Origin: Nitrospirota bacterium
GTDB taxonomy: Bacteria; Nitrospirota; Nitrospiria; Nitrospirales; Nitrospiraceae
Length of the DNA: 64,000 nt
Assembly (NCBI GenBank): GCA_963701855.1
Contig: CAVPBK010000006.1
Coordinates: forward strand, 1,120,001 to 1,184,000
Direction of reading: 5' to 3'
The notes under the pieces: generated by a model
What the model was told of the DNA's origin: nothing
The model's database searches: none
Seen by the model: only the letters and a program-made list of their open reading frames with translations
Translations under genes and position numbers: made by a program
Shown here: positions 1 to 6,140 of the stretch, piece by piece
How positions within the stretch are numbered: the stretch's first letter is position 1
Layout of the letters: every line of letters begins with the position of its first letter

Positions 1-262
1 CCAGATCTTGGAGTCGAATGCGTCCCGACTTGAGATAGGCGCGATACTGATGGCTGGGCAGGTAGCCGTTGCCTCCCAAGAACTGCTTGCCGCGCCGGAC
101 GGTCTCTTCGAATGGAAGGTATTCAAGGCTATGGAGCGGGTTATGGTGCACGAAAGTCCGCATCGGCCAATACTGCGCGACCACTTCGCCTGCGAGATGG
201 ACAATACCTCGCAGCTCCATTCGCCTCGTTTCGATGTCGGGTCGGTTCTCTACTTGTTCCAT
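1..262 (-). CDS. dabA: DUF2309 / DabA (MpsB) inorganic carbon transporter subunit, N-terminal part (runs off window)
   Basis: Hand translation from ATG at 262: MEQVENRPDIETRRMELRGIVHLAGEVVAQYWPMRTFVHHNPLHSLEYLPF. WP..FVHHNPL is the DUF2309 N-terminal motif; lies downstream of NuoL/M-like genes. Not in the ORF track. Confidence 0.88.
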   Translation of the reverse strand, partial: MEQVENRPDIETRRMELRGIVHLAGEVVAQYWPMRTFVHHNPLHSLEYLPFEETVRRGKQFLGGNGYLPSHQYRAYLKSGRIRLQDL

Positions 263-1557
263 ACGAACAATTCCGTGATGGCGCCGGCTGCCGTCGTGAG
301 CGTGCCCGTTTCAAACAGATGGGTCGGGACCACGCCCAAAGCCAGCAACACCACAACGAGGATCGTGAGCGAAGCCAATTCGCCAGGAAGCAGATCTGTG
401 TAGCGCAAATCACAGCGGCGCGCTCCGAAGAGCCACTGCTGCGCCATGCCCATGATGTACCATGAAGCGGCAAGCCAGGCCGTCACGATGATGACGATCG
501 CGATGGAGAAGGAAACCTCGGACAACAGAAGCAGGCCCATGAAACCGGCAAAGAGGCCGAACGGCGGCAGGCCTGTCGCAGCCAAGGCCAAAAGCGAGAG
601 AAGAACGGCGTAGCGCGGCATAGTCGCCGCCAACCCACTGATGGATTGCGGGTCCACGTCGTCTCCATAGCGCGTTCGGATGACCTGCCAAGCGAGCAGC
701 AGTCCGCTGGTGGTGAACCCGACTGCCCCGACGAAGACCGCAGCGCGTGGTGTCGTGGCATTGGTCGAGGCACCAAACCACCACAGCATCGAGTAGAACG
801 ACAGGCTGCTGTACGACAAGAGGAGTCGTGCGCGCGATTGCGCCAGCGCCTTAACCGCACCGTAGAACGTGCCTGCCAGGGCAAACAGGCTTACAGTCCA
901 GGCCGCCGCGTCAGGGACTGTCGGCATGACCGATGTTGCGCCGTGCAGTCCGATCACGGGGAAGAGCAACACGATGAACGAAGGTAGGCTGCCGGGGAGC
1001 CGCGTAAGCGCAGTGATATGTCCCTGGTGAAACGGCATAAGCGGCAACAAAACTGCGCAGGTCAACAAGGACGCGACGGAAGAGAGCGGCGGGGCAGCCA
1101 CGAGAGAAATCGTGACGCACCCAACGGCGAGTGCATAGGCGCCGATCCCCAACCAGGAAATTGGCCACAATGGCGTATGGTGGCGGTAGAGCAACGCGAT
1201 GAGTGAACTGAGCAGCACAAGCAAGCACACCTGCCCCATGACGTTTTGGCTCGTCAGGATGACGAATCCCAGTCCGAGAAACAGCAAGGTCGTGATCCAC
1301 GACAGCCGCAGATTCTTGTGACCCGGCTGTCCCAGGAGAGATGCACAGGCGGCAACCGGCAGGAGATAAACCAGCAACAGATTTTCAGGTGAGGTCGTGA
1401 GGGATTCAGACATTCCGGCAGCCGCGACGAGGCTCAGGATCGACAGGACGACCGACCAGTTCCTGAGATAGTCCGGTCGCGACCAGACTGCGAAGCCCAA
1501 CGCTGCTCCCAGAAGAGGAATACCTGCCAGAAGCAATGAAGCGACGGCACCATCCAT
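250..1557 (-). CDS. Degenerate NuoM/MrpD-like proton-antiporter-family membrane subunit of the DAB locus
   Basis: Very hydrophobic; PLMPFH, ISGLAATMPR and GLPPFGLFAGF motifs. Start taken at ATG 1557, overlapping the upstream TGA (TGATG). Confidence 0.8.
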   Translation of the reverse strand: MDGAVASLLLAGIPLLGAALGFAVWSRPDYLRNWSVVLSILSLVAAAGMSESLTTSPENLLLVYLLPVAACASLLGQPGHKNLRLSWITTLLFLGLGFVILTSQNVMGQVCLLVLLSSLIALLYRHHTPLWPISWLGIGAYALAVGCVTISLVAAPPLSSVASLLTCAVLLPLMPFHQGHITALTRLPGSLPSFIVLLFPVIGLHGATSVMPTVPDAAAWTVSLFALAGTFYGAVKALAQSRARLLLSYSSLSFYSMLWWFGASTNATTPRAAVFVGAVGFTTSGLLLAWQVIRTRYGDDVDPQSISGLAATMPRYAVLLSLLALAATGLPPFGLFAGFMGLLLLSEVSFSIAIVIIVTAWLAASWYIMGMAQQWLFGARRCDLRYTDLLPGELASLTILVVVLLALGVVPTHLFETGTLTTAAGAITELFVWNK

Positions 1558-3257
1558 CACCGCGACCATCCTCGTACGCTTTTGTCGAATCGGACCAGGA
1601 GTCGCCCGGCTACCCCGCCCAGTTTTTGATAGACCTCGTCCGCATAAAGCCGGTTCATGAACAGGACGTACAAGCGAATCCTCACCCCCTCGACCCACGA
1701 CGGCATCCAGACAGTACGCCCATGGGCCCGCATGTAGAGATAGAACCATCCGGCGATCGTCGTCAGCGTCGCCATGATGATCATCAGGTCGAAGAACCAA
1801 TTCGGGAGTTCGGCCGCCTTGAAGTAGGACGCAACTTCATGCGGGTCCGGGTAGAGGAACGCCGTAAAAGATTCCACGGCGAATAGATATACAAACACAA
1901 TGAACAGCAGGGTCAGCAGCATCACGGACGACACTTTCCACGAGGCCACGGCCCTTAATCGTGTAAGTGTCATGATGGCCTGTGAGGAGGTGATCCAGAT
2001 GAAGAACAGAAAGATCACCGTGCCCTGCGACTCAAGCAGTGGAATATGCAACACGCCGTGCGTGACGAGGAGAATCAGCAGGGGAATGAAGAGTGTCGTC
2101 ACGAAACCGGTCGACCAGGTGAGACGGGAGAAGCCCTCTTCCTCCTCCTGATGGTCATGGTGAGGGAAATGAGGTTCCTGCCGGGCCTTATGGATGACGT
2201 TGCCACAGTTCAAAAACACGGTCGCCTTGAACAGTCCGTGCGCGATCAGATGGAAGACTGCGAGAGAAAATGCGCCCAATCCACATTCCATGATCATGTA
2301 ACCCATCTGACCTATTGTGGAGAAACCGAGCGTTTTCTTGATGTCGTTTTGCGCCAGCATCATGCTGGCACCGAGAACAGCTGTCAGGGTGCCGACAGCG
2401 AAGGCTACGTGGAGGGTTGTCGAGCTCAATCCGAAGAGCGGCGCCAACCGGTTGATCAGAAACCCGCCGGCATTGATGATGCCGGCATGGAGCAACGCGT
2501 GCACCGGTGTGGGGGCATAGAGCGAGCGGGGCAGCCAGACGTGGATCGGAAACTGCGCCGACTTGCTCATTCCTCCGATGAACAGCAGCAGCGTGACGGC
2601 TGTGGTTCCGTTGAGTTCCCATCCAGGCAGAGGCGAGAGCGTGACCGGCGTCTCAGCCGCCTTGACGAACAATGGCTGGAACTCCAATGTGCCATAGAGT
2701 GAATGGGCCAGGACGATACCGGAAAGAAACGCCACATCGCCGACGCGCAAAAGCGTAAACGTTCGAAAGGCGCCTTCCAGCGTCGCTGCATGCGCATGAT
2801 TGTGGGCCAGGATATAGAGCAGGTAACTCAGGAGCTGCCAAAAGATGAACAGCATCATGAGATTGCCGCTTGAGACCATGCAAAGCAGTACGAAGGTCGT
2901 AAATCCGATCAGCGAAAGGTACCGGGTTTCATGCGGATCCTGGTACAGGTATCCGACGGAATAAGTGTAGATGATGGTTCCGACGCCGGAGATTAACACC
3001 ATCATGATCGCACTCAGCCGATCGATGTAAAAACCAATGGGAAAAGCCAGCGTCGCAGGGGATGAGGGGTCGTAGAACCGAATGGTGATGGCCCCGTGTG
3101 TCGCCACATACCAGAGGGTCACGATGGCTCCCAGCAAAGCTGCGCCGATGGGATAGGCCGCGATCCTGGCGCGTCGGTGTCGGGAGTTCTCATCGCCGAC
3201 CAGCACGATGAGCCCCGCGAGGAGCGGGAGGAATGGAACTAGGATGACGGAGAACAC
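1557..3257 (-). CDS. dabB: NuoL-like DabB/MpsA subunit of inorganic carbon transporter
   Basis: IDRLS, KSAQFPIHVWLP, PTPVHALLHAG, DIKKTLGFST, HLIAHGLFKATVFL motifs; GTG start at 3257 with GAGG upstream. Confidence 0.88.
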   Translation of the reverse strand: MFSVILVPFLPLLAGLIVLVGDENSRHRRARIAAYPIGAALLGAIVTLWYVATHGAITIRFYDPSSPATLAFPIGFYIDRLSAIMMVLISGVGTIIYTYSVGYLYQDPHETRYLSLIGFTTFVLLCMVSSGNLMMLFIFWQLLSYLLYILAHNHAHAATLEGAFRTFTLLRVGDVAFLSGIVLAHSLYGTLEFQPLFVKAAETPVTLSPLPGWELNGTTAVTLLLFIGGMSKSAQFPIHVWLPRSLYAPTPVHALLHAGIINAGGFLINRLAPLFGLSSTTLHVAFAVGTLTAVLGASMMLAQNDIKKTLGFSTIGQMGYMIMECGLGAFSLAVFHLIAHGLFKATVFLNCGNVIHKARQEPHFPHHDHQEEEEGFSRLTWSTGFVTTLFIPLLILLVTHGVLHIPLLESQGTVIFLFFIWITSSQAIMTLTRLRAVASWKVSSVMLLTLLFIVFVYLFAVESFTAFLYPDPHEVASYFKAAELPNWFFDLMIIMATLTTIAGWFYLYMRAHGRTVWMPSWVEGVRIRLYVLFMNRLYADEVYQKLGGVAGRLLVRFDKSVRGWSR

Positions 3258-3288
3258 TGGTACCTCATGATGATCGACGCAGGAACCC

Positions 3289-3350
3289 AAGAAAACAGAA
3301 AAGCCAACCGGGGATTCCCCGACGACTGATCGAGGCAATCCGGTTGGCTT
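3289..3350 (-). terminator. Intrinsic terminator in the dab leader
   Basis: AAGCCAACCGG...CCGGTTGGCTT perfect 11-bp stem followed by TTCTGTTTTCTT, about 30 nt before the dabB start. Confidence 0.8.
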
Positions 3351-3465
3351 GTACTGCAACCGGCCTCTCTCCTGAATTGCCGGTCGCCCTACGGCCGCTG
3401 ACAGTCGAAGCCGGTGTTTCGCCTGTTTCCGAGGAGTCTCGAGACAGGAGACATCGCCGTACTGT
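3289..3465 (-). ncRNA. Candidate structured 5' leader (riboswitch or attenuator) of the dab operon
   Basis: Three stem-loop domains; the last is an intrinsic terminator, and an alternative antiterminator pairing exists (see findings). Confidence 0.6.
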
Positions 3466-3482
3466 GAAGTCCAGCTCAATCA

Positions 3483-3509
3483 ATAATACTGTCCATAGAC
3501 ATTCGTCAA
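3483..3509 (-). promoter_or_regulatory. Possible sigma70 promoter of the dab leader
   Basis: TTGACG-N15-TATTAT; spacer is shorter than ideal. Confidence 0.35.
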
Positions 3510-3689
3510 GCGTCTGCTACGAAATTGGTGTCCCCGATCGTTGGGCGAAGGCCTAAAAGTCCCAGGCGGCGAACCGGTTTGGATAAAAGCCCTACGTTTC
3601 CACTTGTTCAGGCGGGCACCCCCCCTTATAATCTGCTGCCGAGTCGGCTACCACAATCGAATTCCCTCATCATTCGGACAAAGTACCGC

Positions 3690-4034
3690 GTGGAAAACGC
3701 CATTCGCAATATCATCATCAAGTTCGAGCAAGAATTCATGGGTCGCGGACCCGATGAAGTGCGCGCGTTTGTCGTGCGGGATCTGGTCGTTGTCCGGCTG
3801 AAAGGGGTGCTTACGCTCGCAGAGCGCCAATTAGCCAAAACGACAGAAGGCGTCGACATGGTGAAGCGGTTACGGCAAAACTTGATCGCACTGGGTCGCG
3901 ACAAACTCTGCGATCAAGTGAGCGACATCACGGGCGCCAAAACCCTGGCCCTTTTTACCGACATTGACGTACAGATCGGCGAACGGGTTTTCGTGTTCAC
4001 ACTCGATCGCGACATTCAGGGTGGAAGCCGATAG
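3690..4034 (+). CDS. DUF2294 (MpsC/YbcI-like) protein
   Basis: KFEQEFMGRGP..VVVRLKGVLT.AE..LA and TDID...GERVFVFTL motifs; start uncertain (GTG 3690 or slightly upstream). Confidence 0.85.
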   Translation: MENAIRNIIIKFEQEFMGRGPDEVRAFVVRDLVVVRLKGVLTLAERQLAKTTEGVDMVKRLRQNLIALGRDKLCDQVSDITGAKTLALFTDIDVQIGERVFVFTLDRDIQGGSR

Positions 4035-4048
4035 CGCAAATACGCACA

Positions 4049-4640
4049 ATGGGACAACTCGCCACAGGCCTCCTCAAGTTTCGATTCGAGATGTTCGGCA
4101 AGAAACAAGAGCTCTTCACCAGGCCTTCAGAACTCCTTGATCCCTTTTCATTACCTGTTTCGATTCACGAGTCGACCCGACTCTCCTGACCCAAGCCGAT
4201 CCCGTGGAGCTCTGTATTCTCAGGAACGTCGGCAATATGGTGGCTGTGTGGCTCGATGCAAGGGGGCGGCACAGCGACCATCGAGTACGCCATTGGCCGT
4301 TCTGAAGGTTCCACCCAGTATTGTCTGCGGACATGAGGCTTGCAGTGTGATGAGAGCGCTCGTGCACCGAAGGATGTGCAGGACCCACCGGCCCTCAGGA
4401 AGTGGGTCGGGCAAGCAGAAGCCTGCCCGGCGCTTGATCAAAGCTTCGCGGGAAAACATGCGATCACAGATCGACCAGCTTCGCACCCCCCCGTCCGTCG
4501 CCGTGCGTCTACGTCCGCGAAACGTGTCTCTCCATGGGTGGGTGTATTCCATTTCGACCGGCGACGTGTGGGTCTATGACTTCGACTCCGAGCGATTCAC
4601 CTCTCTGCTGGACGAGGCTTTTCCTAGCTTGAAAGCATAG
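4049..4640 (+). pseudogene. Beta-class carbonic anhydrase, multiply frameshifted
   Basis: Segments in different frames: FITCFDSRVDPTLLTQ..LRNVGNMV / ATIEYA / VLKV..IVCGHEAC / ENMRSQIDQLRT..LHGWVYSISTG. Confidence 0.85.
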
Positions 4641-4670
4641 TGTTTGTCCTGGCAAGCTGTACCCACGACC

Positions 4671-6140
4671 ATGCGCCCACTGGAAACTCTCTCTTTCGAT
4701 AACTCCTATGCCCGTTTGCCCCAGACTTTCTACGCCAAGTTGAACCCCACGCCGTTTGACGTGCCTCCGTATCTCGTCAGTTTCAATCCCGCAGCAGCCG
4801 AACTGATCGACCTTGATCCGGCGCAAGCGAAGCGACCGGAGTTTGCCGGGGTGTTTGGTGGGAGTCTTCTAGTCCCGGGGATGGAGCCGTTGGCGATGCT
4901 CTACTCGGGCCATCAATTTGGGGTCTACGTTCCGCAATTGGGAGACGGTCGCGCAATTCTCCTTGGCGAAATACGGAACGAACGGGGCGAGAAGTGGGAT
5001 CTGCATCTGAAGGGGGCGGGACTTACACCGTTCTCGCGAGAGGGAGACGGCCGCGCGGTTCTGCGTTCGACCATCCGGGAGTATCTCTGCTGCGAAGCGA
5101 TGCATGGGCTGGGCATTCCGACGACGAGGGCACTCTGCATCGTCGGCAGCGATCACAAGGTCTATCGCGAACAGGTCGAGACCGGCGCGATCGTACTTCG
5201 CATGGCGCCCTCTCACGTGCGGTTCGGCTCGTTCGAAATTCTCTATTATCGGAAACAACATGAACAGCTCAAAGTGCTGGCCGACTTCGTGATTGCGCAT
5301 CACTATCCTCATCTCGTGGAAGCAGCAGACAAATATGCGCACTTCTTTCATGAGGTCGTCGAGCGTACCGCGAAGCTGATTTCCCAATGGCAGGCCGTCG
5401 GTTGGGCGCACGGAGTGATGAACACCGACAACATGTCGATCCTGGGGATCACACTTGACTACGGCCCGTTCGGCTTTATCGACGACTACGATCCAGGACT
5501 TGTCTGCAACCACTCCGACCACAACGGCCGTTATGCCTTCAATCAACAGCCCTATATCGGTCTCTGGAATCTCAGCTGTCTGGCGCAGGCGTTGCTCCCG
5601 TTGGCCCAGAAAGAAGATTTGAAGGCCGCACTAGACCGCTACACCCCCCTCTGCGAAGAAGGGTACATGGAGTTGATGCGGGCTAAGCTCGGACTCATCG
5701 AGACGAAGGAGGAAGATGCGTCGATGATCCAAGACCTCTTGGCGCTCATGCACCTACAGCATGTCGATTACACTAGCTTCTTTCGAGCCCTGGGACTGTT
5801 TCAAGCCGGAACTGAATCGCTGAATGAGCTGATCCGCGACTTCTTCCTGGATCGTGAATCGTTCGACCAGTGGGCTCGCCGGTACAAGGATCGGTTGCGC
5901 CAAGAGGGGAGTCGAGACGAGGACCGGTTGGTCCGTATGAACCGCGTCAATCCCAAGTACGTGCTCCGCAACTATCTGGCGCAGACCGCCATCGAGAAGG
6001 CTCAGAAGAAGGACTTCTCCGAGATCGATCGGTTGCTCTCTCTGCTGCAAAATCCCTACAGCGACCAGTCAGGCATGGATGCCTACGCAGCCCCGCCACC
6101 TAACTGGGGCAAACACTTGTCCGTTAGTTGTAGCTCCTAG
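4671..6140 (+). CDS. selO: Protein adenylyltransferase SelO (YdiU)
   Basis: YSGHQFG, QLGDGRA, KGAGLTPFSREGDGRAVLRS, HGVMNTDN, NPKYVLRNY, C-terminal CSS. Confidence 0.95.
   Translation: MRPLETLSFDNSYARLPQTFYAKLNPTPFDVPPYLVSFNPAAAELIDLDPAQAKRPEFAGVFGGSLLVPGMEPLAMLYSGHQFGVYVPQLGDGRAILLGEIRNERGEKWDLHLKGAGLTPFSREGDGRAVLRSTIREYLCCEAMHGLGIPTTRALCIVGSDHKVYREQVETGAIVLRMAPSHVRFGSFEILYYRKQHEQLKVLADFVIAHHYPHLVEAADKYAHFFHEVVERTAKLISQWQAVGWAHGVMNTDNMSILGITLDYGPFGFIDDYDPGLVCNHSDHNGRYAFNQQPYIGLWNLSCLAQALLPLAQKEDLKAALDRYTPLCEEGYMELMRAKLGLIETKEEDASMIQDLLALMHLQHVDYTSFFRALGLFQAGTESLNELIRDFFLDRESFDQWARRYKDRLRQEGSRDEDRLVRMNRVNPKYVLRNYLAQTAIEKAQKKDFSEIDRLLSLLQNPYSDQSGMDAYAAPPPNWGKHLSVSCSS

Follow-up and report, generated by a model that had tools for sequence, protein, structure and literature searches.

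Here we describe a leader RNA on the minus strand of a 64,000-nucleotide (nt) stretch of DNA from a Nitrospirota bacterium (contig CAVPBK010000006.1, positions 1,120,001 to 1,184,000). This stretch is called the window, and its numbering is used throughout. The leader (3289-3465) precedes dabB, the first gene of a DAB operon for the uptake of CO2/bicarbonate. Sequence comparison makes it a well-supported candidate for a previously undescribed family of cis-regulatory RNAs of the Nitrospirales. We consider it highly probable that the leader is a real, conserved cis-regulatory attenuator. The wider interpretation, in which it is a new ON-type riboswitch-like attenuator of inorganic-carbon uptake operons that senses its ligand directly, is in our view about evenly balanced.

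A preliminary description of the locus had listed two hairpin domains, a terminator with a U-tract and a complementarity between the second hairpin and the terminator. When the minus strand was read, all of them were present where they had been placed. The arms of the 5′ domain, ACAGT (3465-3461) and ACTGT (3405-3401), are complementary, and an inner helix of CCTGT (3448-3444) and ACAGG (3426-3422) encloses a tip hairpin with CGAG/CTCG. In hairpin 2, GCGACCGGC (3387-3379) pairs with GCCGGTTGC (3364-3356). The terminator hairpin (3301-3350) consists of an inner stem and an 11-base-pair (bp) base formed by AAGCCAACCGG (3350-3340) and CCGGTTGGCTT (3311-3301), and the U-rich tract TTCTGTTTTCTT (3289-3300) follows directly 3′ of the stem. 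A G+C-rich hairpin with an immediate U-tract thus stands just 5′ of dabB, as is typical of an intrinsic terminator; a consensus terminator scan listed its inner stem alone. The minimum free energy of the 223-nt leader was -88.2 kcal/mol compared to -77.6 ± 4.8 kcal/mol for shuffled sequences (z = -2.2), and 4 of 200 shuffles folded as well as the leader, which is a modest signal taken alone. The question is decided by the comparative data, in which P2, hairpin 2 and the terminator proved conserved and covarying (see below).

We searched genomes of the same family with the leader using blastn and obtained 30 loci. The part from hairpin 2 to the U-tract was 70-88% identical in all of them, while the whole leader was kept within the genus. 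Downstream lay a DabB homologue at 27 loci, a broken dabB at two and a SulP transporter at one. Some genomes in this search were flagged as unpublished, and none of our claims depends on them. The structure was placed by hand on a 30-sequence MAFFT alignment. RNAalifold recovered hairpin 2 (hereafter P3), a GUA/UAC helix and the terminator alone from the plain alignment, and the 5′ domain was paired manually, guided by single-sequence folds. In the resulting alignment 92.3% of the cells pair and 12 pairs display double changes. The covariation score was reached by none of 500 column shuffles, and controls with slid helices paired in only 27-46% of cells.

A covariance model (R1) built from this alignment was used to collect and align 119 hits at 97 loci, comprising 111 full-length leaders and eight antisense matches to the palindromic terminator. 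Double-sided changes were found at 33 of the 41 modelled pairs (633 cells): at 8 of the 12 pairs of helix 5 (P3 plus GUA/UAC), at 6 of 10 in the terminator base and at all five of the inner stem. Again, no shuffle out of 500 reached the observed score and slid controls paired in 26-44%, although these figures overstate independence, since the alignment follows the model and the genomes share ancestry. P3 has been rebuilt from quite different sequences, both across lineages and in paralogous copies of the same genome. Orthologous leaders were thus conserved and covarying across three families of the order, as the preliminary description had expected of a genuine switch.

The universal part of the leader is a core (3346-3396) that reads GGC-N-GUA-GG-(P3)-AG-UAC-AA-GCC and is the proposed sensor and antiterminator. 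Its 5′ side consists of GGC (3396-3394), C (3393), GUA (3392-3390), GG (3389-3388) and the 5′ arm of P3 (3387-3379). After the P3 loop (3378-3365) follow the 3′ arm of P3 (3364-3356), AG (3355-3354), UAC (3353-3351), AA (3350-3349) and GCC (3348-3346). P3 is a covarying 9-bp helix, and the core leads directly into the strong terminator. We counted the core words in 108 leaders, that is the 111 full hits minus three whose 5′ parts were too short for the length filter (L085:9538-9668, L086:13091-13227 and L087:7646-7754). GUA was present in 98, UAC in 92 (UGC in 16), GG in 104, AG in 107 and AA in 90, and a GG[C/U] stood 0-3 nt 5′ of GUA in 104. The mean terminator energy of these leaders was -26.5 kcal/mol, and 98 of them had at least six U in the first nine nucleotides after the stem. 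With its covarying helices and invariant unpaired nucleotides, the leader has the conserved structured sensor domain that characterizes riboswitches as a kind. The GA/AGUA-GAA patterns that K-turn or loop-E internal loops require were absent by inspection.

The palindromic nature of the terminator had side effects in these searches. Its antisense strand (3301-3350, plus strand) scored 20-38 bits against R1 positions 114-161 at several loci, and a chance Rfam match to 'Hairpin ribozyme' arose from the same palindrome. Such antisense matches are artefacts and not further elements.

The 5′ domain (3409-3463) is less widespread than the core. It consists of P1 (3455-3463 with 3409-3416), which is of the CGGCG/CGCCG type, P2 (3444-3451 with 3419-3426) and a variable tip hairpin (3427-3443), and it contains a conserved internal loop of the AUG/GAAAC type. 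Single-sequence folds gave the same shape in most of the 30 sequences. P2 covaries: the pair 15-56 is CG in 13 sequences, UA in nine and UG in six, and the pairs 18-53, 20-52 and 21-51 change on both sides. The domain occurs in leaders of the family designated f1 and in those resembling family f23, while other hairpins take its place in much of family f2. Of the first domain as originally drawn, P2 stood up as conserved and covarying, but the domain is missing or replaced in much of f2, and the outer ACAGT/ACTGT helix said to close it was not kept even in genus-mates.

How might the core act on the terminator? We folded the 30 sequences only up to the 3′ arm of the terminator, which mimics the moment before this arm is made. 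Hairpin 2 was then extended through GUA/UAC, and in most of the sequences GGC paired with the GCC of AAGCC, an extension worth -5.3 kcal/mol on average. GGC/GCC pairs in 94% of the alignment cells and never varies. Together with the adjoining AA, this helix overlaps the base of the terminator, the very bases that have to pair with GGCUU next to the U-tract. We infer that the GGC/GCC extension of hairpin 2 is the conserved competitor of the terminator and hence a candidate antiterminator. Such an overlap would explain the invariance of GGC, UACAAGCC and both internal loops as well as the freedom of P3 to covary.

The motif appears to be restricted to the Nitrospirales. At a threshold of E ≤ 0.001, R1 detected it in 91 of 151 genomes sampled from the order (41 of 62 in f1, 43 of 62 in f2, 6 of 21 in f23 and none of five in f24). 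In a phylum-wide sample it was confined to f1 and f2, with no match in the 125 genomes that represented 20 other families. When two invariant words were sought across all GTDB species, at least 80 loci were readable. Among the matches listed, R1 matched 27 of 80, which were exactly those titled Nitrospira, Nitrospiraceae, Nitrospirales, Nitrospirae or Nitrospirota, and none of the 53 others.

Nor did the leader fit any family of Rfam 15, which includes the DUF1646 Na+, nhaA-I Li+, ykkC, yybP, M-box, fluoride and PRE/alx families. We ran cmscan with permissive filters on window positions 2800-4000 (E ≤ 10) and on seven diverse relatives (45.7 kb, E ≤ 1). The window yielded two chance matches on the other strand only (22.1 and 20.7 bits, where the gathering scores are 44 and 65), the relatives two unrelated weak ones. 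The view that the layout is that of a riboswitch or attenuator expression platform without a known Rfam family was borne out. Our literature search returned no paper in which DAB, MpsAB or SulP-type uptake genes are connected with an RNA element; the relevant passages of PMC12342949 name no riboswitches other than those for guanidine, and also mention additional nuoL/M genes beside Mnh/Mrp.

We asked which genes the leader controls and recorded the first recognizable gene within 500 nt of each of the 111 leaders, backed by Pfam. DabB followed 61 leaders and DabA 17 (plus one further downstream). MnhE, which opens a Mrp/Mnh-like operon of the order E-(F)-G-MbhD/E-MnhB, followed 18, a SulP-family transporter 11 and an HtrA-like protease one, while two leaders ran into the end of their contig. 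Genomes carry up to three leader copies that differ in sequence. In f2 up to three copies lie in one cluster of 10-20 kb, one each before SulP, DabA and Mrp-like genes. At some loci DabA is directly followed by MnhE. In the order sample, DabA is present in every one of the 91 motif-positive genomes, and none of the 17 genomes without DabA carries the motif. The DAB, SulP and Mrp-like operons are a coherent regulon for the uptake of inorganic carbon and the cation cycling that drives it, and the association with SulP and Mrp-like genes fits the inorganic-carbon, Na+ or pH theme suggested earlier.

Several loci differ from the common arrangement. L010 (genome G119) and L008 (G183) each have an intact leader, then what is left of the dabB start, and behind it a SulP-family gene, that of L010 encoding 453 amino acids without a STAS domain. 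This suggests that the leader stayed in place while the gene behind it was replaced. At L004 a leader is present, but there is no dabB open reading frame that is intact. L032 (G142:C1:70000-80500) has a tandem DabB-like pair after its first leader copy. Its second copy is followed by SulP with STAS, a CitMHS/NhaD-like permease and a CBS-pair protein, and has mpsC divergent upstream. An HtrA/DegP-like protease (Trypsin_2 and two PDZ domains) stands right after DabA in the f2 clusters L083, L084, L115, L117 and L054, and L054 has a weak leader match with this protease as the first gene behind it. Many genomes of the order sample have a second DabA and a divergent MpsC paralogue (Pfam E 1e-12 to 1e-20) with no leader match nearby, for example G013 (C9:19171-22254 with C9:31477-31809). 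This suggests two types of DAB cluster, only one of which uses the RNA motif.

A promoter-like pair of hexamers on the minus strand precedes the leader. The -35-like TTGACG (3504-3509) and the -10-like TATTAT (3483-3488) predict a transcription start near 3476, and their position would make the whole leader part of the 5′ untranslated region. TTGACG-15 nt-TATTAT (or TACTAT) is kept about 75-104 nt 5′ of the core in f1 leaders, and our own scan found the pair at 9-10 of 12 matches in 43 of the 108 leaders. A consensus scan with spacers of 16-18 nt gave no promoter at the leader because the hexamers are only 15 nt apart.

We propose the following mechanism. Transcription would start at the conserved promoter, and the RNA would first fold its 5′ accessory domain (P1/P2). 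The sensor hairpin would form next, and its short basal helices GUA/UAC and GGC/GCC, split by the invariant internal loops, would hold the AAGCC of the terminator 5′ arm. A signal, probably a small ligand or an ion that binds to the invariant loops, would stabilize the base of the hairpin, so that the terminator could not close down to the U-tract and transcription would read through into dabB-dabA (ON). If the signal is absent, the terminator, being far more stable, would displace the 3-bp GGC/GCC helix and transcription would stop at 3289-3300. The regulon points to inorganic-carbon shortage, or to a coupled Na+/H+ status, as the signal. More specifically, we offer the tentative idea that the 50-nt core represents the first natural riboswitch class to report inorganic-carbon status, switching on the DAB/SulP/Mrp-like regulon by binding directly a small molecule or ion whose level follows the supply of CO2/bicarbonate, with a metabolite linked to the carboxylation substrate, a second messenger or the coupling cation as candidate signals.

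Several observations weigh against direct sensing with ON logic. Bicarbonate itself is an unlikely ligand because of the ON logic and the inorganic-carbon regulon; we speculate that a metabolite or ion that rises at carbon shortage, or the coupling cation, would fit better. The proposed antiterminator helix is only 3 bp long and, because GGC/GCC never varies, lies outside covariation testing, so that covariation has no say for or against it. The 5′ domain is not universal, which makes its role uncertain, and 43 of 134 DabA-positive genomes have no motif at E ≤ 0.001. With mpsC divergent beside the leaders and co-occurring with them, the locus has the look of a protein-dependent system. Finally, RNA data came from the contigs of one soil metatranscriptome study, which alone hold a relative with 95-99% identity. 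One of these contigs covers 3292-3624 and so reaches well upstream of the predicted promoter; the others span 3341-3554, 3231-3311, 3087-3311 and 3105-3406. The last bridges the terminator, and ends at 3292 or 3311 fall beside a 2-nt strain difference. As strand and ends of such contigs are indeterminable and DNA carry-over is possible, we drew no inference from them on start, stop or expression.

The switch could also be operated by a protein that stabilizes the base of the hairpin against the terminator, with MpsC (DUF2294) as the candidate sensor. We regard this as possible rather than probable. RAT/LicT-type and ANTAR-type systems are protein-bound antiterminators of this kind. In 18 genomes of f1, f2 and f23, the window included, mpsC lies 98-356 nt from the leader on the opposite strand. 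MpsC was found in 84 of the 91 motif-positive genomes, and among DabA-positive genomes the motif occurred in 84 of 102 with MpsC compared to 7 of 32 without it. These seven comprise six weak matches (E 4e-7 to 7.5e-4) and one genome that is 87% complete. Moreover, only the small core is common to the three paralogous leaders of a genome, which is compatible with a protein footprint. However, the co-occurrence can be explained by a single physically linked cassette, related genomes are not independent, and 19 MpsC-positive genomes lack the motif. In Firmicutes, too, MpsC is part of DAB loci, those of the mpsABC type (as described by Pfam; Bacillus subtilis gave a control match), whereas the invariant-word scan gave, among the matches listed, no copy of the motif outside the Nitrospirales. 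The AlphaFold model of MpsC is confident (pLDDT 92.9), and its nearest folds, Bet3/TPC6, YslB and H-NOX-type small-molecule-binding domains, would suit a sensor; the model hints at a small-molecule-binding or adaptor domain in DUF2294. The fold matches are nevertheless weak (Foldseek TM 0.38-0.50, E ≥ 0.003) and none is a known RNA-binding antiterminator, and when the MpsC sequence was compared to PDB chains, no match had an E value below 0.2.

The remaining explanations differ in what they make of the RNA itself. The geometry given in the preliminary description is that of a four-segment attenuator, in which the pairings 1:2 and 3:4 alternate with a 2:3 pairing of the 3′ arm of hairpin 2 (CCGGTTG, 3363-3357) with the terminator 5′ arm (CAACCGG, 3346-3340), triggered when segment 1 is kept unpaired. 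This duplex is strong in the window (7 bp, -12.1 kcal/mol). Nearly all of the 30 sequences retain a 4-bp core of it (CGGU/ACYG), but its outer pairs are found in no more than 13 and 15 sequences. Among the 104 of 108 leaders covered by our test, the mean duplex energy was -6.64 kcal/mol within a sequence and -6.32 kcal/mol with mismatched partners, a difference for which 79 of 5000 shuffles reached the observed mean in a test inflated by related sequences. In SulP-type leaders, in which the terminator arm has changed, the own pairing reached -10.3 kcal/mol compared to -6.4 kcal/mol crosswise. Yet the duplex was worth -5 kcal/mol or weaker in 24 of the 104 leaders, compared to -17.6 kcal/mol for P3 and -26.5 kcal/mol for the terminator. 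Nothing conserved upstream could sequester segment 1, and the invariance of GUA, GG, AG, UAC, AA and the upstream GGC would go unexplained. We therefore consider this attenuator unlikely, although the pairing may serve as a helper. The observations of the preliminary description are thus confirmed, while its switch interpretation is partly supported, being right in kind and corrected in anatomy: the mutually exclusive pairing is real in the window, but most relatives keep its 4-bp core only. That there is no switch at all seems to us very unlikely. The leader would then be a constitutive 5′ untranslated region whose hairpins confer stability and whose terminator leaks, or else a small RNA with a separate function, about 185 nt long and with its 3′ end at 3289. 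The operons could be controlled elsewhere, for example at the promoter, where conserved sequence lies just upstream of the -35 hexamer; no switching has been observed so far, and the RNA-library contigs both stop near the terminator (at 3292 and 3311) and bridge it (3105-3406). Against this stand the near-invariant unpaired nucleotides of the internal loops that adjoin covarying helices, the exact overlap of the core with the base of the terminator and the recurrence of the motif before three functionally linked operon types, all of which stability alone would hardly account for. It would also be wasteful to place a constitutive terminator before uptake genes that are needed. Attenuation by a leader peptide, finally, would couple the position of a ribosome on a short reading frame to terminator formation, and we find it barely conceivable here. 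In the window, AUG 3454-3452 does open a frame of 21 codons that ends at the UAG inside GUAGGG, but in the alignments of relatives this start is CUG, GUG, UUG, AGG or absent, the length of the frame and the position of its stop are not kept, and a Shine-Dalgarno sequence is absent upstream of it. Covariation in this region is of the RNA type, and the whole 5′ domain is missing in many f2 leaders.

The leader as we read it, with a hairpin base that is stabilized by a signal and thereby prevents termination, shares its logic with several known systems. In purine ON riboswitches such as the pbuE/ydhL adenine riboswitch, the 3′ strand of the helix that closes the aptamer is the start of the terminator 5′ arm and the ligand prevents termination. 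The leader differs in having no three-way junction and an unrelated sequence. RAT (LicT/SacY/BglG) and ANTAR targets are short hairpins with internal loops whose base overlaps the terminator 5′ arm and is stabilized from outside, and as in these systems a small regulator-type gene, here mpsC, is found nearby. The patterns of ANTAR and RAT targets, two hexaloop hairpins and the RAT consensus, were absent from the alignments by inspection, with no model run. Pfam scans of neighboring genes found no ANTAR, PRD or CAT domain at the loci examined, and the Bet3/V4R/H-NOX-like fold of MpsC is unlike CAT or ANTAR folds. The nhaA-I and nhaA-II Li+ riboswitches resemble the leader in their simple architecture of a stem with internal loops. 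They are ON switches before cation/proton antiporter genes, according to the abstract of PMC9646797. In contrast to these, the leader has no Rfam match, fronts other genes and is also found before CO2/bicarbonate uptake genes. The layout is also that of ON riboswitches which have been validated and in which a helix of the aptamer overlaps the terminator, among them the Na+ class (PMC9337991). As described there, the Na+ riboswitch (DUF1646 motif) has a compact hairpin aptamer with a helix that overlaps one shoulder of the terminator, as in the leader, and shares with our interpretation of the leader the ON read-through logic, cation-coupled transport genes and several copies per theme (PMC9337991). 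Unlike it, the leader does not match the DUF1646 model, has other conserved words, is found in Nitrospirales only and stands before DAB, SulP and Mrp-like genes.

How non-cyanobacterial chemolithoautotrophs sense inorganic carbon and regulate its uptake is largely unknown, and the motif bears on this question. It is a defined regulator of 50-170 nt with more than 100 natural variants, and its regulon ties DabA to Mrp-like modules and SulP transporters, with MpsC as a candidate partner. If the RNA binds a ligand directly, it would represent a new orphan riboswitch class whose ligand is an internal signal of carbon limitation in key nitrifiers. An inorganic-carbon riboswitch would then act in globally important nitrite oxidizers and comammox bacteria of the Nitrospirales. 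If a protein is required, a function would emerge for DUF2294/MpsC. In either case the element might serve as a reporter or control element for the engineering of CO2 uptake.

As to the genes around the leader, its position next to a DAB operon, claimed from the outset, was verified by Pfam matches for both DabB and DabA. The ribosome binding site GAGG (3265-3262) and the GTG start codon of dabB (3257-3255) together span 3255-3265 on the minus strand, and this GTG lines up with the ATG, GTG or TTG starts of DabB homologues. The first gene controlled is dabB (1557-3257, minus strand), which encodes a NuoL/MrpA-like membrane subunit (Proton_antipo_M 6.5e-46, Proton_antipo_N 2.1e-13). An N-terminal extension of DabB from TTG 3479 was rejected, since the differences in length are not multiples of three and covariation in the region is of the RNA type. 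DabA (PF10070, 1e-244) is encoded two genes 3′ of dabB and spans the start of the window; a DabB subunit with PF00361 thus occurs together with DabA, the hallmark of a DAB operon. The order on the minus strand (window 250-1800; L031) is dabB, a second PF00361-like membrane gene of about 435-440 amino acids after an overlapping long open reading frame is trimmed, and dabA (1076 amino acids). The same order was seen in L103, L104, L108 and L110.

Divergent from the leader lies mpsC (DUF2294; 3690-4034, plus strand; Pfam MpsC 8.2e-32), which may encode a partner acting in trans or may be co-regulated. Its longest frame opens at TTG 3525, but homologues and Pfam match alike set in near GTG 3690. 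With GTG 3690 as the likely start, about 165 nt of the long open reading frame (3525-3689, plus strand) are probably non-coding. The model of MpsC (3690-4031) has the topology of a helix, two strands, two helices (one short and one long) and two strands. Between the -35 hexamer of the leader and mpsC, the minus strand contains two similar words, GTAGGGCTTTTATCC (3595-3581) and CTGGGACTTTTAGGCC (3565-3550), and a matching block, (C/G)TAGGGCTTTCGGGCC, was found at the same place in most of 30 related loci. The words at 3550-3595 could be the operator of a DNA-binding regulator or part of the promoter or 5′ untranslated region of mpsC. On the plus strand, mpsC is followed (4137-6140) by a beta-carbonic-anhydrase-like gene (Pro_CA 8.7e-11) and then by SelO, which also occurs 3′ of the leader-controlled SulP gene in L118.

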